Assembly (NCBI RefSeq): GCF_003334815.1
Contig: NZ_QOWO01000018.1
DNA length: 64,000 nucleotides
Strand: one strand, 5' to 3'
From: Escherichia coli
Lineage (GTDB): Bacteria > Pseudomonadota > Gammaproteobacteria > Enterobacterales > Enterobacteriaceae
In this document: positions 25,855-35,628 of the stretch, in pieces
How the letters are laid out: the number at the start of each line of letters is the position of its first letter
Numbering within the stretch: the stretch's first letter is position 1
Notes under the pieces: model-generated
Told to the model about the DNA's origin: nothing
Databases searched by the model: none
What the model saw: only the letters and a program-made list of their open reading frames with translations
Translations under genes and position numbers: made by a program

Positions 25855-25953
25855 GCCGGATGCGGCGTGAACGCCTTATCCGGCCTACAAAATATTGCAA
25901 ATTCAATATATTGCAGAAACCTTGTAGGCCTGATAAGCGCAGCGCATCAGGCA
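25855..25953. repeat. REP/BIME element
   Basis: gccggatgcggcgtgaacgccttatccggcctaca ... tgtaggcctgataagcgcagcgcatcaggca. Confidence 0.8.
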
Positions 25954-26087: not shown

Positions 26088-26102
26088 TGGCACGCCTTTT
26101 GC
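26088..26102 (+). promoter_or_regulatory. Sigma-54 promoter TGGCACG-cctt-TTGC upstream of lafB (fliD-like) operon
   Basis: Exact -24/-12 consensus match 33 nt upstream of ATG 26135. Confidence 0.65.
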
Positions 26103-26134: not shown

Positions 26135-27451
26135 ATGATCAACCCAAGAACCATTGCGCAAGAAATCGCTTATGCAGATGTCGCCACTCAGGCGGCAAAC
26201 TTGCAGGAGAAGCAAACGGAGCTGGATGCCGAAAGCAGCGGCCTGGACTCGCTCAGCTCGGCGTTGAGCGATTTCCAGAGCGCCGTGGATGCGCTAAACA
26301 GCGATACCGACGGCCCGGTGACCTTCGCTGCCACCAGCAATAATGACTCGGCGACCGTTTCCGCTAACTCGCAGGCGCAGGCGGGAAGCTACTCGTTTTT
26401 CGTTGAACAACTGGCGCAGGGGCAGCAGACCACGTTCAGTATGGGTGATGACACCTTTTCTGCGACGGGGACGTTCGAAATGACCATGGGCGACAGCACC
26501 ATGGATATTGATCTGGCGGCGGCGGATCAGAACGGTGACGGCGACGGTTTTATCGACGCCAGTGAACTGGTGAATGCGATTAACGACTCCGATGACAATC
26601 CGGGCGTGTCGGCTGCGCTGGTAAAAACCGACGGCACCACCACGATTATGCTCACCTCGGATAGCACCGGGGCGCAGAGCGCGTTTTCGGTGAGCGTAAC
26701 GGGGCATGATGCCAGCAACGATAGCGCCAGCGCGCCCGTTGCCACGGATGTTTCCTCCGCTCAGGACGCGATTATTCATCTCGGTAGCGCCACAGGGCCT
26801 GAGATCACCAACAGCAGCAATACATTTGATGATGTGATCCCCGGCGTCACCATGACTTTCACCGAAGTCAGCGATTCTGACAGCGATCTCACTACCTTTA
26901 ACATCAGCGAAGATTCCAGCGCCAGTCAGGAGAAAGTACAGACCTTTGTCGATGCCTATAACACCTTGATTGATACGGTTGATTCACTGACTACTCATGG
27001 TGATGACAGTACCAGCGCCGGGGTATTTGCAGGCGACGCCGGACTCAATTCACTGGCGAACCAGCTCGATGACATCGCCCATGCCAACTACAACGGCGTG
27101 TCGATTGTTGACTATGGCATCACGCTTGATTCTCACGGCCACTTACAGATTGACTCCGACCAGTTCAACGACGAAATGGCGAAAAATCCTGACGGTCTGA
27201 CCTCTATTTTCGTTGGCGACAACAGCATGGTGGCGCAGATGGACGACCTGATTAACACCTACACGGACTCCAGCAACGGCATCATCACCCTGCGCCAGCA
27301 GAACATTGACGATCAGATGAGCAAAATTCAGGACGAAGGCGATCAGCTTACCGATACCTATAACGCCAACTACGACCGTTATCTCGAGGAGTACACCAAC
27401 ACGCTGGTCGAGGTGTACACCATGAAAGCCAGCATGGCGGCATTCGCGTAA
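26135..27451 (+). CDS. lafB: Flagellar filament capping protein FliD homolog
   Basis: 438 aa, directly downstream of flagellin and upstream of fliS; coiled-coil termini; assignment mainly by synteny. Confidence 0.6.
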   Translation: MINPRTIAQEIAYADVATQAANLQEKQTELDAESSGLDSLSSALSDFQSAVDALNSDTDGPVTFAATSNNDSATVSANSQAQAGSYSFFVEQLAQGQQTTFSMGDDTFSATGTFEMTMGDSTMDIDLAAADQNGDGDGFIDASELVNAINDSDDNPGVSAALVKTDGTTTIMLTSDSTGAQSAFSVSVTGHDASNDSASAPVATDVSSAQDAIIHLGSATGPEITNSSNTFDDVIPGVTMTFTEVSDSDSDLTTFNISEDSSASQEKVQTFVDAYNTLIDTVDSLTTHGDDSTSAGVFAGDAGLNSLANQLDDIAHANYNGVSIVDYGITLDSHGHLQIDSDQFNDEMAKNPDGLTSIFVGDNSMVAQMDDLINTYTDSSNGIITLRQQNIDDQMSKIQDEGDQLTDTYNANYDRYLEEYTNTLVEVYTMKASMAAFA

Positions 27452-27473
27452 CTCAGAAGGAATATCCCTAAAG

Positions 27474-27866
27474 ATGTACCAAGTACAGGACGGCTATTCA
27501 CAATATAAAGAGATCGATCTCGCGGCGCGTACTGCGGCGGCATCGCCTCTGGAACTGGTGCTGGTGCTGTTTTCTGGCCTGATGGACGAGCTGGAACGCG
27601 CCAAAAGCCATATTGAAGGGCGGCGTTTCGAGAAGAAAGCCCAGAGCATCAATAAATGCATCGACATTCTCAATGCGCTTACCAGTTCGCTGGAGTTTGA
27701 AACCGGCGGTGAGCTGGTGGTCAACCTTTCGCGACTCTATGACCACTGCGTTTACCGATTGTATGAGGCCAGCGGCGAATTATCGGCAGAGAAAATCGAT
27801 GAAGTGATGCTGATCTTAAGCAACCTGCGCGAAGGCTGGGAAGGGCTTTCGGGCAAGCTGGGTTAA
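27474..27866 (+). CDS. lafC: Flagellin-specific chaperone FliS homolog
   Basis: 130 aa; ...EIDLAARTAAASPLELVLVLFSGLMDELERAK... typical FliS helical bundle. Confidence 0.8.
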   Translation: MYQVQDGYSQYKEIDLAARTAAASPLELVLVLFSGLMDELERAKSHIEGRRFEKKAQSINKCIDILNALTSSLEFETGGELVVNLSRLYDHCVYRLYEASGELSAEKIDEVMLILSNLREGWEGLSGKLG

Positions 27867-27870
27867 GACG

Positions 27871-28182
27871 ATGGAAAAACAACGCAGGCAACTTTTCGCA
27901 CTGGTCGAGGCGATGAATGAAGCCCTCGACAAGCAACGCTGGCGACGCCTTCCGGCACTGCATCAGCAGTTGATGCGCCAGTTTCACGATTACGCGGCGG
28001 CGGAAACCGACGCGGCGCAGTTCTGTGCGGTAAAGGCGCATTTGTACGGCGCGTTTAATGCCCTGATTAAACGGCGCGAGCAGCGCGCAGAAGTGTTGAA
28101 GGCGCGTATGGAACAGCATCAGCGGCATCAGGAAGGTGTGCTCGCCTACTCAATTGTTAATTTACTTTCGGAGAAGTCATGA
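27871..28182 (+). CDS. lafD: Small helical protein, possible FliT-like chaperone (LafD)
   Basis: 103 aa, position fliS-X-fliK; no strong motif. Confidence 0.4.
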   Translation: MEKQRRQLFALVEAMNEALDKQRWRRLPALHQQLMRQFHDYAAAETDAAQFCAVKAHLYGAFNALIKRREQRAEVLKARMEQHQRHQEGVLAYSIVNLLSEKS

Positions 28183-29240
28183 ATCCGGCATTGCTTGCCA
28201 CGCTCGGAACGCTTGCGGAAACCGCTTCGTTGAAGGCGGATATTTTACCGCCGGTGAGCGGTGAAAACGCGCCCGCGTTTACCCTGCCGAAAATGGCGGT
28301 CGCGGCGGTGGCGGAGCGCGTTCATAGCGCTAAAACCAGTCAGCAACAGGCGACGCGCCCGCAGGAGAACGATCCGGTGGCGATGCAGGCGCTAATGGCG
28401 CTGTTACTTCCACAACCTGCCGCGCCGCATCAGCACACGCCGCAGCCGCGAAACGTCGCAACATCGCCGGTTATCCAGCAATTGACGAAAGCGGTGGTGC
28501 AAAACGCGCCGCAACGCCAGACGCAACAGCAGGAACTCACGCCGTTGCCGCCGCAGTTGCAGGAACTGATCAGTCAGTTGCCACAGGCGAAGCCCGAACA
28601 GCAGGCCAGACTGGCGACTTACGCCAGTGAAGATTTACATGCCATTGCGCCGACGCAGCCGCGCGTTTCAACACAGCCAGCTCGCCCAAAACCTGAACTA
28701 ACCCGTGTGACCGCGCGCCCGCAGGTCGAGCGTAAAACGGAAAAAGTGCCGGACAGCGAACCGGTTATTGCGCGTGCGGTGTTGCAGGTTAAGACGCCGG
28801 AGCTGCTCAGCGAGCATCAGGAGATTGTCGCCAAACCAGCCACGCTTTCGATGGACGAACTGGGCGAAAAACTGACGACGCTTTTGAAAGATCAGATCCA
28901 CTTTCAGCTCAACAAACAACAGCAGATCTCCACCATCCGTCTCGATCCACCGTCGCTTGGCAAGCTCGAGATCGCCGTACAACTCGACAACGGCAAACTG
29001 ATGGTGCACATCGGCGCGAACCAAAGTGAAGTTTGCCGCGCGTTACAGCAGTTTAGCGACGATCTCCGCCAGCATCTGACGGCGCAAAATTTTATGGAGG
29101 TGAACGTACAGGTCTCCTCCGAAGGGCAGTCGCAGCAACAACAACAGTCGGGCCATCAGCAGGAAGAGGTGAGTGCCGCCTTACAGCTTGATGATGCGCC
29201 TCAATTTCAACAGAACGAATCCGTTTTGATCAAAGTGTAA
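28179..29240 (+). CDS. lafE: Flagellar hook-length control protein FliK homolog
   Basis: 353 aa, Pro/Gln-rich central region, C-terminal ...IRLDPPSLGKLEIAVQLDNGKLMVHIGANQSEV... FliK C-terminal domain. Confidence 0.6.
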   Translation: MNPALLATLGTLAETASLKADILPPVSGENAPAFTLPKMAVAAVAERVHSAKTSQQQATRPQENDPVAMQALMALLLPQPAAPHQHTPQPRNVATSPVIQQLTKAVVQNAPQRQTQQQELTPLPPQLQELISQLPQAKPEQQARLATYASEDLHAIAPTQPRVSTQPARPKPELTRVTARPQVERKTEKVPDSEPVIARAVLQVKTPELLSEHQEIVAKPATLSMDELGEKLTTLLKDQIHFQLNKQQQISTIRLDPPSLGKLEIAVQLDNGKLMVHIGANQSEVCRALQQFSDDLRQHLTAQNFMEVNVQVSSEGQSQQQQQSGHQQEEVSAALQLDDAPQFQQNESVLIKV

Positions 29241-29247
29241 AGGCAAT

Positions 29248-29715
29248 ATGAAGAAAATCGTGGTGGCGGGCGTGGTCAGCGCCGTTCTGGCGTTGGTGGT
29301 GGGGGCCGGAGCTGGATGGGGTGTCTGGCATCATTATGCCGGAAAAGGAAAACCGACTGCCGCCGCGCAGACGGAAACGGTGGAAACCCTGGATGAAAGC
29401 AAAAGCGTGTTTGTGACGTTGCCGGAAACCATTGTCACGCTGCATGACAACAACGGCGCGGACCATTATTTGTCGGCGGAATTAGTGATGGTGGTCGCCA
29501 GTGACAAAGAAGCGGAAAAAATAAAACATCAGGAGCCGCTGTATCAAAGTATTGCGGTTGAATGCCTGACGGAAATGAAATTTGAAGATTTGCGTGGCAT
29601 GAAAATATCCGCCATCCGCAAACTCATTTCTGACGCGTTAAAGAAAGATCTTCAGCGTCGCAAAATGAGCGCACCGTATAAGGATTTGCTGGTGAAAAAA
29701 GTGGTCTTCCAGTAA
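29248..29715 (+). CDS. lafF: Flagellar basal-body-associated protein FliL homolog
   Basis: 155 aa, single N-terminal TM helix, FliL-like; precedes fliA. Confidence 0.6.
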   Translation: MKKIVVAGVVSAVLALVVGAGAGWGVWHHYAGKGKPTAAAQTETVETLDESKSVFVTLPETIVTLHDNNGADHYLSAELVMVVASDKEAEKIKHQEPLYQSIAVECLTEMKFEDLRGMKISAIRKLISDALKKDLQRRKMSAPYKDLLVKKVVFQ

Positions 29716-29734
29716 TCACCAGGCGGATATAAAT

Positions 29735-30451
29735 ATGCTACAGGATGTATTCGAGTCGGAAGAATTTGCTGCCGCGCCGGTATTAACCCCGCAGCAGGAG
29801 AGCCACTACTTGCAGGCCTATTTACCGTTGGTGCGTAAAGTGGTGCGGCAACTTGCCCCGCAGTGTAATTGCATTATTGATCGTCAGGATATGGAACAAA
29901 CGGCGTTAATGGGGCTGCTTAATGCCATCCGTCGCTACGGGCTGCCGGACGAAGGTTTTGCGGGCTATGCCGTGCACCGTATTCGCGGCGCGATCCTGGA
30001 TGAGCTGCGCGCTCTCGACTGGCGACCGCGCCAGCTGCGACAGAAATATCATCAGATGAAAGATCTGATTCGCGAAACGCGCAAAAAACTGGGGCACGAA
30101 CCGGAGTGGTCAGAACTGGCCGTGGAAGGGATCTCGCATGAAGATTATCTCGAATATCAGCAACTGGAAGGGGCGGAAACGCTCGCCAGCCTGGACGAAC
30201 TGCTGAACGGCGAAGGGCCTGGCATTCTGCTTGCTGGCAGGGAGCTGGAAGATCAGTTTGTCACCCAGCAAATGCTGCAACAGGCGCTTTCACAATTAAG
30301 CGAAAAAGAGCAACTGATCCTCTCCATGTATTACCAGCATGAGATGAATCTCAAAGAGATTGCGCTGGTATTAGGGCTAACCGAGGCCCGAATTTGTCAA
30401 CTGAATAAACAGATCGCGCAGAAAATTCGTGATTTTGTCTATCCGAATTAA
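29735..30451 (+). CDS. lafS: Flagellar sigma factor sigma-28 (FliA family)
   Basis: 238 aa; sigma-70 family regions 2 and 4 (YLPLVRKVVRQ..., LSEKEQLILSMYYQHEMNLKEIALVLGLTEARICQL). Confidence 0.85.
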   Translation: MLQDVFESEEFAAAPVLTPQQESHYLQAYLPLVRKVVRQLAPQCNCIIDRQDMEQTALMGLLNAIRRYGLPDEGFAGYAVHRIRGAILDELRALDWRPRQLRQKYHQMKDLIRETRKKLGHEPEWSELAVEGISHEDYLEYQQLEGAETLASLDELLNGEGPGILLAGRELEDQFVTQQMLQQALSQLSEKEQLILSMYYQHEMNLKEIALVLGLTEARICQLNKQIAQKIRDFVYPN

Positions 30452-30463
30452 AGTGAAGAAATC

Positions 30464-31327
30464 ATGCAAAAAATATTAGGTTTACTGGTGGTGCTCGGCT
30501 GCGTATTTGGCGGTTATTTTGAAGCGGGCGGGCAATTAGTGGCTATCTGGCAACCGGCGGAAATGATCATTATTTTGGGTGCCGGTTTCGGGGCGATGAT
30601 TATTGGTAACCCGAAACATGTGCTGAAAGAGATTGCCCATCAAATTAAAGGCGTAATCAGTAAAAAACAGCTCGGGCCGGAGTTTCAGCGCCAGCTATTA
30701 ATGTGCCTGTATGAGTTACTCGAAATGGTGCAAAACGGTGGTCTGCGCATGCTGGATCAACATATTGAGCAACCGGAAGAGAGCACCATTTTCCAGAAAT
30801 ACCCGCTGGTGTTAACCCAGAAGCGGCTGGTGACCTTTATTGCCGATAACTTTCGCCTGATGGCGATGGGTAAAATCGACGCCCATGAACTGGAAGGCAT
30901 TCTCGATCAGGAACTGGACACCGCGGAAGAGTCGCTGCTAACGCCGTCGCGCTCGCTGCAACGTACCGCCGAAGCGATGCCGGGGTTTGGCATTTGTGCG
31001 GCGGTGTTGGGCATCATCATCACCATGCAGTCGATTGACGGCTCTATCGCCCTGATTGGCCTGAAAGTGGCGGCAGCGCTGGTGGGGACATTTTTAGGCG
31101 TCTTTATCTGCTACTGCCTGATGGACCCACTCGCCAACGCCATGGAACAACAGGCGCGGGCAGAACATTCTTTGCTGGAATGCGTGCGTACCGTGCTGGA
31201 GGCGCAGGCAGGCGGCAAACCGACGCTGCTGGCGGTGGACGCCGGGCGTAAGCTACTGCATCTGGCGTCCAAACCGACCTTCGCCAACCTCGACGCGTGG
31301 GTGAATGCGATGCTGGAGCAAGAATAA
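30464..31327 (+). CDS. lafT: Flagellar stator protein MotA homolog
   Basis: 287 aa, four TM helices, MotA/TolQ/ExbB family. Confidence 0.85.
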   Translation: MQKILGLLVVLGCVFGGYFEAGGQLVAIWQPAEMIIILGAGFGAMIIGNPKHVLKEIAHQIKGVISKKQLGPEFQRQLLMCLYELLEMVQNGGLRMLDQHIEQPEESTIFQKYPLVLTQKRLVTFIADNFRLMAMGKIDAHELEGILDQELDTAEESLLTPSRSLQRTAEAMPGFGICAAVLGIIITMQSIDGSIALIGLKVAAALVGTFLGVFICYCLMDPLANAMEQQARAEHSLLECVRTVLEAQAGGKPTLLAVDAGRKLLHLASKPTFANLDAWVNAMLEQE

Positions 31328-31329
31328 GC

Positions 31330-32253
31330 ATGAGAAAGACGGGTAACCGCCGCGATCGTGGGGCAAAAACCACCATCGTCCGGCGGCAGATCAAAAAGAA
31401 TCATGCCGGGCACCACGGCGGGGCGTGGAAGGTGGCGTTCGCCGACTTTACTTTGGCAATGATGGCGCTGTTTATGACGCTGTGGATTGTCAACAGCGTC
31501 AGTAAATCCGAGCGTGAAAGCATTATCGCCGCGCTGCACGGGCAGTCGATTTTTAACGGTGGTGGGCTGTCGCCGTTAAATAAAATCAGCCCGTCTCATC
31601 CGCCAAAACCTGCCACCGTGGCGGTGCCGGAAGAGACGGAGAAAAAAGCGCGTGATGTGAATGAGAAAACGGCGCTGCTGAAGAAGAAATCCGCCACCGA
31701 GCTTGGTGAGCTGGCAACCAGTATCAACACCATTGCCCGTGATGCGCATATGGAAGCGAATCTGGAGATGGAGATTGTTCCCCAGGGATTACGCGTGCTG
31801 ATTAAAGACGACCAGAACCGCAATATGTTTGAACGCGGCAGCGCGAAGATTATGCCGTTCTTTAAAACGCTGCTGGTGGAGCTCGCGCCAGTGTTCGACT
31901 CGCTCGATAATAAAATTATTATTACCGGGCATACCGATGCGATGGCCTACAAAAACAATATCTACAACAACTGGAACCTTTCGGGTGACCGCGCGCTTTC
32001 GGCTCGTCGGGTGCTGGAAGAGGCCGGAATGCCGGAAGATAAAGTGATGCAGGTAAGCGCAATGGCGGACCAGATGCTGCTGGATTCCAAAAATCCGCAA
32101 AGCGCGGGCAACCGGCGCATTGAGATTATGGTGCTGACCAAAAGTGCGTCCGATACGCTGTATCAATACTTTGGTCAGCATGGGGATAAAGTGGTGCAGC
32201 CGCTGGTGCAAAAGCTGGATAAGCAGCAGGTGCTTTCGCAGCGAACGCGTTAA
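31330..32253 (+). CDS. lafU: Flagellar stator protein MotB homolog with OmpA-like peptidoglycan-binding domain
   Basis: 307 aa from ATG 31330; TM helix WKVAFADFTLAMMALFMTLW with conserved Asp; C-terminal NLSGDRALSARRVL...GNRRIEI OmpA-like motif. Confidence 0.85.
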   Translation: MRKTGNRRDRGAKTTIVRRQIKKNHAGHHGGAWKVAFADFTLAMMALFMTLWIVNSVSKSERESIIAALHGQSIFNGGGLSPLNKISPSHPPKPATVAVPEETEKKARDVNEKTALLKKKSATELGELATSINTIARDAHMEANLEMEIVPQGLRVLIKDDQNRNMFERGSAKIMPFFKTLLVELAPVFDSLDNKIIITGHTDAMAYKNNIYNNWNLSGDRALSARRVLEEAGMPEDKVMQVSAMADQMLLDSKNPQSAGNRRIEIMVLTKSASDTLYQYFGQHGDKVVQPLVQKLDKQQVLSQRTR

Positions 32254-32291
32254 ATGCTGAATCTTTACGCATTTCTCAAACCCTGAAATCA

Positions 32292-32307
32292 CTGTATACT
32301 TTACCAG
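32292..32307 (+). promoter_or_regulatory. LexA (SOS) box CTGTATACTTTACCAG upstream of dinB
   Basis: CTG-N10-CAG palindrome 17 nt upstream of the dinB ATG. Confidence 0.7.
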
Positions 32308-32323
32308 TGTTGAGAGGTGAGCA

Positions 32324-33379
32324 ATGCGTAAAATCATTCATGTGGATATGGACTGCTTTTTCGCCGCAGTGGAGATGCGCGACAATCCCGCCCTGCGCGA
32401 TATCCCTATTGCTATTGGCGGCAGCCGCGAACGTCGGGGGGTGATCAGCACCGCCAATTATCCCGCGCGTAAATTTGGCGTACGTAGCGCTATGCCGACA
32501 GGGATGGCGCTCAAATTATGCCCACATCTCACCTTGCTTCCGGGGCGCTTTGACGCCTACAAAGAAGCCTCAAATCATATCCGTGAAATCTTCTCGCGCT
32601 ACACCTCGCGCATTGAACCGTTGTCACTGGATGAGGCTTATCTCGATGTCACCGATAGCGTCCATTGCCACGGTTCTGCGACCCTCATCGCCCAGGAAAT
32701 CCGCCAGACAATCTTCAACGAGCTGCAACTGACGGCGTCTGCGGGCGTGGCACCAGTAAAGTTTCTCGCCAAAATCGCCTCCGACATGAATAAACCCAAC
32801 GGCCAGTTTGTGATTACGCCGGCAGAAGTTCCGGCATTTTTACAAACCTTACCGCTGGCAAAAATCCCCGGCGTCGGCAAAGTCTCAGCGGCAAAACTGG
32901 AAGCGATGGGGCTGCGGACCTGCGGTGATGTACAAAAGTGTGATCTGGTGATGCTGCTTAAACGCTTTGGCAAATTTGGCCGCATTTTGTGGGAGCGTAG
33001 TCAGGGGATTGACGAACGCGATGTTAACAGCGAACGGTTGCGAAAATCCGTCGGCGTGGAACGCACGATGGCGGAAGATATTCATCACTGGTCTGAATGT
33101 GAAGCGATTATCGAGCGGCTGTATCCGGAACTTGAACGCCGTCTGGCAAAGGTAAAACCTGATTTACTGATTGCTCGCCAGGGGGTGAAATTAAAGTTCG
33201 ACGATTTTCAGCAAACCACCCAGGAGCACGTCTGGCCGCGGCTGAATAAAGCTGATCTAATCGCCACCGCGCGTAAAACCTGGGATGAACGCCGCGGCGG
33301 GCGCGGTGTGCGTCTGGTGGGGCTGCATGTGACGTTGCTTGACCCGCAAATGGAAAGACAACTGGTGCTGGGATTATGA
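32324..33379 (+). CDS. dinB: DNA polymerase IV (Y-family translesion polymerase)
   Basis: 351 aa; [33 protein letters not shown] hallmark N-terminus. Confidence 0.95.
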
Positions 33380-33430
33380 TGTATACTATTATGTATATTC
33401 TGGTGTGCATTATTATGAGGGTATCACTGT

Positions 33431-33724
33431 ATGCATCGAATTCTCGCTGAAAAATCGGTCAATATCACTGAGTTACGTAAAAACCCAGCTAAATACTTTA
33501 TTGATCAACCGGTTGCGGTTCTTTCTAATAATCGCCCCGCAGGATATCTCTTAAGTGCCAGCGCATTCGAAGCGTTAATGGACATGCTTGCTGAACAAGA
33601 GGAGAAAAAGCCCATAAAGGCGCGCTTCCGTCCAAGTGCTGCAAGATTAGAGGAAATTACACGCCGCGCTGAACAATATCTTAATGATATGACGGATGAT
33701 GATTTCAATGACTTTAAGGAATAA
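33431..33724 (+). CDS. yafN: Antitoxin YafN (Phd/YefM-like)
   Basis: 97 aa, matches recalled YafN; immediately upstream of yafO. Confidence 0.9.
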   Translation: MHRILAEKSVNITELRKNPAKYFIDQPVAVLSNNRPAGYLLSASAFEALMDMLAEQEEKKPIKARFRPSAARLEEITRRAEQYLNDMTDDDFNDFKE

Positions 33725-33726
33725 GG

Positions 33727-34125
33727 ATGCGGGTATTCAAAACAAAACTTATTCGCCTGCAACTTACAGCAGAGGAACTTGATGCGTTAACGGCGGATTT
33801 TATTTCCTATAAGCGTGACGGTGTTTTGCCAGATATATTTGGTCGCGATGCACTCTACGACGACTCCTTTACCTGGCCATTAATCAAATTTGAGCGAGTT
33901 GCTCATATTCATCTGGCAAATGAGAATAATCCATTTCCGCCACAGTTGCGCCAATTCAGCAGAACGAATGACGAAGCGCATTTGGTATATTGTCAGGGGG
34001 CGTTTGATGAGCAAGCATGGTTGCTCATTGCCATTCTGAAACCTGAACCTCATAAACTGGCTCGAGATAACAACCAAATGCATAAAATTGGGAAAATGGC
34101 AGAAGCGTTTCGCATGCGTTTTTGA
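33727..34125 (+). CDS. yafO: Toxin YafO (ribosome-dependent mRNA interferase)
   Basis: 132 aa, conserved dinB-yafN-yafO-yafP operon context. Confidence 0.85.
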   Translation: MRVFKTKLIRLQLTAEELDALTADFISYKRDGVLPDIFGRDALYDDSFTWPLIKFERVAHIHLANENNPFPPQLRQFSRTNDEAHLVYCQGAFDEQAWLLIAILKPEPHKLARDNNQMHKIGKMAEAFRMRF

Positions 34126-34134
34126 ATTTATATT

Positions 34135-34587
34135 ATGAATAACATACAAATAAGAAACTATCAGCCTGGCGATTTTCAGCAACTATGCGCTATTTTCATT
34201 AGAGCGGTTACGATGACCGCCAGTCAGCATTATTCACCACAACAAATTTCCGCCTGGGCGCAGATTGACGAATCTCGCTGGAAGGAGAAACTCGCGAAAT
34301 CACAAGTGTGGGTTGCGATCATTAATGCACAACCGGTTGGTTTTATTTCCCGCATTGAACATTATATCGATATGTTATTTGTTGACCCTGAATACACCCG
34401 CCGTGGGGTTGCCAGCGCTTTGTTAAAACCTTTGATTAAGTCTGAATCCGAACTTACGGTGGACGCAAGCATAACCGCAAAACCCTTTTTTGAACGTTAT
34501 GGTTTTCAGACAGTTAAGCAGCAGCGCGTTGAATGCCGGGGAGCGTGGTTTACTAATTTTTATATGCGATATAAACCGCAACATTAA
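34135..34587 (+). CDS. yafP: GNAT-family N-acetyltransferase YafP
   Basis: 150 aa; acetyl-CoA binding motif region ...RRGVASALLKPL... Confidence 0.85.
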   Translation: MNNIQIRNYQPGDFQQLCAIFIRAVTMTASQHYSPQQISAWAQIDESRWKEKLAKSQVWVAIINAQPVGFISRIEHYIDMLFVDPEYTRRGVASALLKPLIKSESELTVDASITAKPFFERYGFQTVKQQRVECRGAWFTNFYMRYKPQH

Positions 34588-34892: not shown

Positions 34893-35159
34893 ATGGAATG
34901 GTACATGGGCAAATATATTCGTCCCTTATCCGATGCGGTATTTACCATCGCATCTGATGACCTGTGGATCGAGAGTTTAGCGATCCAACAATTACACACC
35001 ACGGCAAATTTACCCAACATGCAGCGCGTAGTGGGGATGCCAGATTTACACCCCGGACGCGGCTACCCGATTGGCGCAGCGTTCTTCTCTGTTGGTCGTT
35101 TTTACCCGGCAAGACGTCGCGGTAACGGTGCTGGAAACAGAAACGGGCCGCTACTCTGA
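34893..35159 (+). pseudogene. ykfJ: rtcB-like RNA ligase remnant (N-terminal fragment, ykfJ-like)
   Basis: 88-codon ORF with [18 protein letters not shown] (RtcB metal-site motif), then loss of frame; overlaps prfH. Confidence 0.55.
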
Positions 35160-35628
35160 CACACTGCGTTCGGCGCTGGTTTCTCTCGATGGCGATAACG
35201 CATGGGCATTAAGCGAAAGCTGGTGTGGCACTATTCAGTGGATTTGTCCGAGTCCGTATCGGCCTCATCATGGGCGCAAAAACTGGTTTCTGGGCATTGG
35301 GCGTTTTACCGCTGATGAGCAGGAACAATCGGATGCAATCCGTTATGAGACGCTGCGTTCGTCGGGGCCGGGCGGTCAACATGTCAATAAAACCGACTCG
35401 GCGGTACGCGCCACGCATTTGGCATCCGGTATTAGCGTGAAGGTTCAGTCAGAGCGTAGTCAGCATGCTAACAAGCGGCTGGCACGATTGCTGATTGCCT
35501 GGAAGCTGGAGCAACAGCAACAGGAAAATAGCGCGGCGCTGAAATCGCAGCGGCGAATGTTCCATCACCAGATTGAACGTGGCAACCCGCGACGGACATT
35601 TACAGGGATGGCTTTTATCGAAGGATAA
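35071..35628 (+). pseudogene. prfH: Peptide chain release factor homolog RF-H, N-terminally truncated (TTG start in ORF track)
   Basis: GGQ motif [11 protein letters not shown]; begins at a TTG inside the rtcB remnant. Confidence 0.65.

Follow-up and report, generated by a model that had tools for sequence, protein, structure and literature searches.

The window analysed here, a stretch of 64,000 nt of Escherichia coli DNA, holds the end of a Flag-2 lateral flagellar gene cluster followed, on the same strand, by the SOS gene dinB and by yafN, yafO and yafP. Gene annotation was transferred from the chromosome of E. coli strain 300709, which is 99.9-100% identical to the window apart from a 118-bp offset. 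The genes and the promoter elements around the junction are the following.

26088-26102, + strand: sigma-54-type promoter-like site TGGCACGCCTTTTGC, 33 nt upstream of lafB (consensus match)
26135-32253, + strand: lafB-C-D-E-F-S-T-U, corresponding to fliD, fliS, lafD, fliK, fliL, a fliA-like sigma factor, motA-like and motB-like genes (300709 annotation)
31330-32253, + strand: lafU coding sequence (MotB-like lateral stator protein, last Flag-2 gene), TAA stop at 32251-32253
32254-32323, + strand: lafU-dinB intergenic gap, exactly 70 bp, 40% G+C
32273-32278, + strand: -35-like hexamer TTCTCA of the dinB promoter (consensus scan)
32290-32309, no strand assigned: LexA box CACTGTATACTTTACCAGTG, with its CTG-N10-CAG core at 32292-32307 and an A/T-rich spacer
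32295-32300, + strand: -10-like hexamer TATACT within the LexA box, 16 nt spacing from the -35-like TTCTCA
32312-32321, + strand: Shine-Dalgarno region of dinB, GAGAGGTGAG, read from the sequence; 32315-32321 are paired in the fold of the long RNA
32324-33379, + strand: dinB (DNA polymerase IV), ATG at 32324
33431-34587, + strand: yafN, yafO and yafP, the remainder of the dinB operon (300709 annotation)

The eight genes from lafB to lafU lie on one strand with the content and order of Flag-2 cluster 3, and the gaps of -4 to 22 nt between them make them a presumptive single operon. The product of lafU is full length here (307 aa), and its homologues carry the Pfam MotB_plug and OmpA domains. 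The site upstream of lafB is a near-perfect match to the sigma-54 consensus TGGCACG-N4-TTGC. It is the likely source of any transcript reaching lafU, and as a candidate promoter it would place lafB-lafU under LafK and sigma-54 as one operon, on the pattern of the lateral systems of Vibrio. The annotation of strain 300709 lists a regulator with a sigma-54 interaction domain and shows the rest of the Flag-2 genes intact, and the search for sigma-28-type promoters within or before lafT and lafU gave no match better than 1+1 mismatches. That a transcript reaches the end of lafU when Flag-2 is on thus appears plausible from the sequence. Flag-2 is not known to be expressed in E. coli; in strain EC958, LafA was undetectable at 28 and 37 degrees C and no Flag-2 expression was seen under laboratory conditions (PMC4637896).

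Three statements made in the preliminary description of this stretch hold: that 70 bp lie between the lafU stop and dinB, a distance that is exact when counted between the TAA and ATG codons listed above; that the LexA box is inside this gap; and that no obvious terminator follows lafU. A terminator scan of the + strand from 31546 to 32818 returned no terminator-like site, and the hairpins of the gap are followed by UUGAGAGG or UGUGGAUA, with no U tract, so that nothing after lafU has the form of an intrinsic terminator. With no sequence element to halt RNA polymerase on its way from lafU to dinB, transcriptional read-through from one into the other is possible in principle. Junction and LexA box, like the operon and the Flag-2 boundary, were all known before, and as a description of the locus those statements add nothing to its map.

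The dinB promoter

The string CTG-N10-CAG occurs 22 times in the window, with an A/T-rich spacer in three cases, and only one of these three, the dinB box, precedes a gene start. The operator overlaps both the -10-like hexamer and the expected start site directly 5' of dinB, which is the layout of an SOS promoter; from the promoter geometry, transcription would start at about 32306-32309. In all but a few of 79 enterobacterial species, dinB is preceded by the arrangement of cTTCTCA, about 16 nt and CTGTATACTT..CAG regardless of the gene upstream, which supports the promoter assignment and indicates that the promoter is that of dinB and not of the flagellar cluster. Nine dinB loci (L021, L038, L043, L047, L066, L067, L072, L075 and L078) have a different upstream region; their LexA box is also different (e.g. 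TACTGTATATAAATACATGT, TGCTGTATGGGTATACAGTG) and cTTCTCA is absent, which points to another promoter lineage or locus.

The consensus of the LexA box is TACTG(TA)5CAGTA, the heterology index of the dinB box is 9.4, and dinB of K-12, identical in sequence, is induced 5.4- to 6.9-fold (PMC11228462). The dinB-yafNOP operon, its control by LexA and the variable presence of yafNO have been described (PMC2814082, PMC3105422), and in K-12 the SOS induction of the downstream yafNO message is wholly dependent on the dinB promoter (PMC2814082). In many E. coli the match to the window stops at the dinB stop codon and yafP comes directly next, the missing part being 33380-34134 (yafN-yafO); this two-gene dinB-yafP form, without the yafNO toxin-antitoxin pair, is known (PMC3105422).

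Distribution of the junction in E. coli and other genera

The 241-bp stretch that spans the junction, 32180-32420, has 100% identity to K-12 MG1655 and was found in 5388 of 5426 complete E. coli genomes (at least 80% coverage, 97.5-100% identity). The gene just upstream of lafU, lafT, taken as a proxy for a flagellar operon retained upstream of the junction, is present in only 1320 of the same 5426 genomes (24%). The remaining E. coli have the well-known lfhA-lafU deletion, which leaves the same right-hand boundary, the boundary itself being no different (PMC6993521, PMC11420993). K-12 shares with the window not only these 241 bp of lafU' (mbhA)-dinB but the LexA box, the order dinB-yafN-yafO-yafP and the rtcB and prfH remnants downstream; in the window these truncated remnants lie at 34905-35628, beyond yafP, and are annotated as pseudogenes exactly as in K-12. 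The two differ in what lies upstream: here a lafU of 307 aa ends an apparently intact Flag-2 cluster, whereas K-12 keeps only a 261-aa lafU remnant with the neighbouring lfhA remnant on the opposite strand, so that no flagellar promoter is directed into the lafU remnant. The Flag-2 locus of E. coli 042, reportedly described by Ren et al. in 2005, is a close known counterpart of the present cluster: there and in Enterobacterales, lafU closes cluster 3 (lafA-B-C-D-E-F-S-T-U) and lies at the same place in the chromosome. In the survey of Flag-2 in Enterobacterales by De Maayer et al. (2020; PMC6993521), neither dinB nor read-through is mentioned.

At the level of the family, 80 dinB loci from Enterobacteriaceae, one per species, were compared. 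Among the dinB loci collected, lafU is found directly 5' of dinB only in Escherichia. The order lafB-lafU itself is shared with Citrobacter, Kluyvera, Enterobacter, Atlantibacter and Leminorella. An ORF of 213-214 aa stands between lafU and dinB in the Citrobacter freundii group, C. rodentium and Kluyvera ascorbata, and in Enterobacter kobei, Atlantibacter and Leminorella unrelated genes come next after lafU. The ORF of Citrobacter and Kluyvera (L019 2293-2934; L093 3548-4189; L094 3550-4194) is conserved and co-directional, ends about 66 nt before dinB, has no Pfam match and is absent from Escherichia. As far as gene order can tell, the contact between lafU and dinB is a local historical accident of the Escherichia lineage and not a conserved feature of Flag-2. 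With the adjacency confined to Escherichia and other neighbours present elsewhere, a conserved link between flagella and the SOS response is unlikely.

In several genera a conspicuous hairpin lies just upstream of the dinB promoter. REP-like elements are found 5' of this promoter in several Enterobacter species, and terminator-like stems in Buttiauxella, Atlantibacter and Trabulsiella. In E. albertii (L088 2760-2888, L089) a REP-like insert of 59 nt (…GTAGACCGGATAAGCGCTGCGCATCCGGCG…) lies between a shorter lafU and the conserved upstream sequence, and the gap amounts to 129 nt. The frequent presence of a hairpin or REP element at this place suggests that insulation of the dinB promoter is common. 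Insulators of the REP/BIME and intrinsic-terminator types are thus found ahead of the dinB promoter and after a gene read in the same direction, a place where E. coli has neither.

An inverted repeat across the dinB promoter

What E. coli does have at this position is an inverted repeat whose arms flank the expected start of dinB transcription. The elements that concern it are the following.

32258-32284, + strand: 5' arm of the fold-back helix (TGAAT / TTTACGCATT / CTCA / CCT), upstream of and including the -35 hexamer
32315-32340, + strand: 3' arm, covering the Shine-Dalgarno sequence, the AUG at 32324-32326 and the first five dinB codons
32254-32286, + strand: 10-codon ORF (ATG CTG AAT CTT TAC GCA TTT CTC AAA CCC TGA), right after the lafU stop and in the same frame, covering the 5' arm

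In the minimum-energy fold of the RNA from 32200 to 32340, positions 32258-32262 pair with 32336-32340, 32264-32273 (UUUACGCAUU) with 32323-32332 (AAUGCGUAAA, AUG included), 32275-32278 (CUCA) with 32318-32321 and 32282-32284 (CCU) with 32315-32317, the partner of the last two segments being AGGUGAG (32315-32321), the Shine-Dalgarno sequence. The outer helix has up to 22 pairs and the LexA palindrome forms its apical hairpin. The predicted energy is -45.7 kcal/mol (z-score -3.09), and two of 200 shuffled sequences folded equally well. An independent repeat search gave the same element as an inverted repeat with 15-nt arms, 32264-32278 and 32318-32332, complementary at 14 of 15 positions, with a perfect 10-nt part, TTTACGCATT / AATGCGTAAA. 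The window contains seven repeats of this quality, where 20 shuffles yielded 0.15 on average; among the other six, no fewer than two are of the REP type. An Rfam scan of 31900-32700 gave chance-level matches only, and no family fits.

To open positions -13 to +6 of dinB would take a predicted 16.3-17.6 kcal/mol (about 16.8) in RNAs starting between 32100 and 32254, in an energy model that takes no account of the transient melting of the outer stem by ribosomes terminating at the end of lafU; in an RNA starting at 32307, as expected from the -10 hexamer, it is 6.6 kcal/mol. When the 36 nt upstream of the box were shuffled preserving dinucleotides, 14 of 500 sequences reached the native opening energy, the mean of the shuffled sequences being already 11.5 kcal/mol. 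None of the other annotated gene starts in the window, among 43 compared, has a higher value than dinB, either for the opening energy in the long context or for the difference between long and short contexts. With the -35 hexamer inside the 5' arm, the transcript from dinB's own promoter does not contain this arm and only RNA from upstream can form the helix. The layout is therefore that of a fold-back element, one arm lying 5' of dinB's own start and the second covering the Shine-Dalgarno sequence and start codon, with a repeat beyond chance and a ribosome-binding site that, by the predicted energies, is markedly less accessible only in the long RNA.

Sequence comparison bears on the helix to a limited degree. 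Across nine Escherichia sequences of the E. coli group (E. coli, Escherichia sp. E1V33 and E. whittamii) both arms are invariant except for one wobble-compatible change, and 13 other columns, at flanking and loop positions, vary. No double, compensatory change was found in the Escherichia alignments, with or without E. albertii; in the E. coli group 27 of 29 pairs are constant, and 23 of 29 still are once E. albertii is added, and with most pairs invariant covariation is almost uninformative. One-sided wobble changes affect five pairs, four in the fold-back helix and one in the LexA-box hairpin. The only divergent Escherichia included was E. albertii, whose junction was recovered through LafU, and no junction of E. 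fergusonii or other divergent Escherichia was present among the members of the DinB cluster or in the list of DinB homologues. The E. albertii 5' arm has six substitutions at paired positions (about 27% divergence), of which four, from C to U or from A to G with the partner unchanged, give G-U pairs and two break terminal pairs. The minimum-energy fold of the E. albertii sequence retains the helix, with an opening energy of 14.8-17.6 versus 4.9 kcal/mol. Four or more wobble-compatible changes out of six have a probability of about 0.1 (a rough binomial estimate in which about one third of random substitutions are tolerated), and the substitution rate is similar in the paired and unpaired parts of the 5' region. 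Conservation within E. coli, at 97.5-100% identity, is uninformative, and the 3' arm is under other constraints in any case, as it holds the Shine-Dalgarno sequence, the start codon and coding sequence, just as part of the 5' arm is the -35 hexamer. Taken as sequence evidence, the evolutionary support for the helix is weak to moderate.

Masking of the ribosome-binding site as a property of dinB leaders throughout the family was ruled out, the median z over shuffles being 0.48 in 79 species. Strong masking is predicted for Escherichia, the Enterobacter cloacae complex and a few others only, and masking is, in these models, a lineage-specific feature rather than a universal one. Nine Enterobacter loci (L018, L024, L031, L032, L039, L040, L048, L049 and L058) have a different repeat, CTCAAnCCTCATT / AATGAGTGAGGG, at about -60 to +5 of dinB, accompanied by a REP-like element further upstream. 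It is also predicted to mask the dinB Shine-Dalgarno sequence in RNA initiated upstream (z of 1.9-4.9 against shuffles), and may be a convergent case.

Read-through, a proposed insulation and alternative explanations

Stress-induced and antibiotic-induced mutagenesis in E. coli proceeds at a rate set by the level of Pol IV, and any route to dinB expression independent of SOS would therefore matter. The explanation that we tentatively prefer for this locus is that of an ancestral Escherichia junction between Flag-2 and dinB-yafNOP in which dinB depends on its own LexA-controlled promoter and a fold-back helix shields it from RNA coming from upstream. In this scheme dinB would be transcribed from the promoter in the gap, with the LexA operator over the -10 hexamer and the expected start, and this RNA, starting between the two arms, would keep its ribosome-binding site accessible. 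An upstream RNA would carry both arms; it would arise by read-through of the sigma-54-type lafB-lafU operon, solely in those E. coli strains, about one in four, in which that operon survives, and would fold back and hide the ribosome-binding site of dinB, so that little Pol IV would be made from it. Untranslated dinB RNA would then probably be exposed to Rho-dependent termination. The net effect would be that dinB stays under the control of LexA (and RpoS) despite the absent terminator.

The function proposed for the helix in read-through RNA, which we infer from the folding models, has a known precedent. Fold-back inhibition reportedly limits translation of the transposase from external-promoter transcripts in IS10 of Tn10 (Davis, Simons and Kleckner, 1985) and, it is said, also in IS50 of Tn5 (Schulz and Reznikoff, 1991). 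The logic is the same, with one arm upstream of the element's own start and another over the ribosome-binding site, so that only external RNA forms the helix; here, in contrast, the gene is a chromosomal SOS gene and not a transposase, and the effect is predicted from sequence. A literature search returned no paper on read-through from lafU to dinB, on the structure of the dinB leader or on fold-back inhibition of dinB. The masking repeat is possibly the sole item of this locus not yet described, as a further example of a known mechanism.

The main rival explanation, which we regard as rather unlikely, is that the inverted repeat has no function and arose by chance or as a by-product of mutation, for instance as a quasi-palindrome produced by template switching, read-through being unimportant for other reasons, be it that transcription of Flag-2 is rare or that Rho or bound LexA puts an end to read-through. 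The lack of compensatory covariation, the lineage-specific masking, the uninformative conservation within E. coli and the 11.5 kcal/mol that base composition alone provides in shuffles all agree with this explanation. It would also be helped by the natural complementarity between a pyrimidine-rich -35 region and a purine-rich Shine-Dalgarno sequence. However, the perfect TTTACGCATT / AATGCGTAAA segments fall for the most part beyond both the -35 hexamer and the Shine-Dalgarno sequence, so that this complementarity fails to explain the repeat, and such repeats are about 50 times rarer in shuffled sequences. The persistence of the helix in E. albertii through some 27% divergence of the 5' arm, mostly by wobble changes, is a further point against it.

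The preliminary description had proposed that read-through would couple expression of the translesion polymerase to that of the motility genes. Its anatomy stands, as does the lack of a sequence that would stop RNA polymerase, but the coupling is unsupported. In its full form, with the lafB-lafU transcript running into dinB-yafNOP and Pol IV, YafNO and YafP co-expressed with lateral flagella independently of SOS, we consider it improbable. In its favour are the lack of a terminator-like site past lafU, the close spacing of the co-directional genes (70, 51, 2 and 9 nt), the sigma-54-type consensus promoter ahead of lafB and the intact annotation of Flag-2 in the near-identical strain 300709. 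These are outweighed by the comparative data, under which a functional coupling of flagella and Pol IV is possible and the least supported reading: the junction is kept equally in the 76% of E. coli without the operon, being the same in K-12, with its antisense lfhA remnant, and in about 99% of E. coli genomes, and the adjacency, specific to Escherichia, is not conserved in the Flag-2 systems of other genera. Furthermore, the Shine-Dalgarno sequence and AUG of dinB are predicted to be buried in a long helix in any RNA started upstream, and a LexA-occupied operator would stand in the path of the polymerase. The results on LafA in EC958 (PMC4637896) and on the SOS induction of yafNO in K-12, which rests entirely on the dinB promoter (PMC2814082), point the same way.

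A variant of this coupling would make it conditional on translation. Ribosomes ending lafU would reinitiate at the UAA-AUG of 32254 and melt the helix, so that dinB would be translated only if lafU is translated. The 10-codon ORF adjoins the lafU stop and spans the 5' arm, and in the nine E. coli-group sequences its in-frame stop is at the same place. Against this, two Escherichia lineages have ACG in place of its ATG and a GTG at the next codon, E. albertii, where the 59-nt REP-containing insert parts the lafU stop from the arm, has not retained the ORF, it has no evident Shine-Dalgarno sequence, and short ORFs are common by chance in 70 nt. The ORF is probably fortuitous, and conditional coupling through it very improbable. 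The same low standing must be given to the most elaborate version, in which surface sensing through LafK and sigma-54 would drive Pol IV and the YafO toxin independently of SOS by read-through, with the helix gated by translation of the 10 codons; we hold it to be highly speculative. If it were true, error-prone synthesis would be tied to active translation of a motility operon in Flag-2-positive strains.

Returning to the explanation by an insulated dinB, the evidence points away from a route independent of SOS, the absent terminator being old and species-wide and the sequence appearing to protect dinB translation. Should the prediction for the helix hold, a chromosomal gene would here share the defence that insertion sequences have against outside promoters. 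The helix would then also call for caution with constructs, cassettes with outward-reading promoters being routinely placed in lafU, beside dinB; zaf-3633::cat is an example of a cassette at this site (PMC4564189).

Several minor observations were made on the window and on the sequences collected. REP-type inverted repeats (CTTATCAGGCCTACA / TGTAGGCCGGATAAG) lie inside Flag-2 at 14727-14772 and 25875-25937, one in the flgD-flgE interval and one in the lafA-lafB interval. Four more inverted repeats with 15-nt arms and at least 14 complementary positions, at 10408-10515, 58630-58666, 62696-62730 and 62738-62775, may be terminators or regulatory hairpins. Between 19938 and 20160, in the interval between the gene for a rod-binding protein and flgK, there are two REP-containing direct repeats of 92 nt, 118 nt apart; they were shown by a direct-repeat search, Tandem Repeats Finder giving nothing at 19.5-20.4 kb. 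The same REP region of strain 300709 has three 118-nt units, and the 118-bp offset of the window lies upstream of about 19.9-20.15 kb, so that the DNA of the window is not exactly that of strain 300709. An E. coli metagenome-assembled genome (L091 2736-2800) has a deletion from the end of the LexA box (…TTTACCAG) into dinB at about codon 40, with loss of the ribosome-binding site and of the start of dinB. Lastly, a protein of 444 aa from a Logan assembly (P0214) combines the OmpA domain, C-terminal in LafU, with DinB domains, and could be a lafU-dinB fusion or an assembly or deletion variant.
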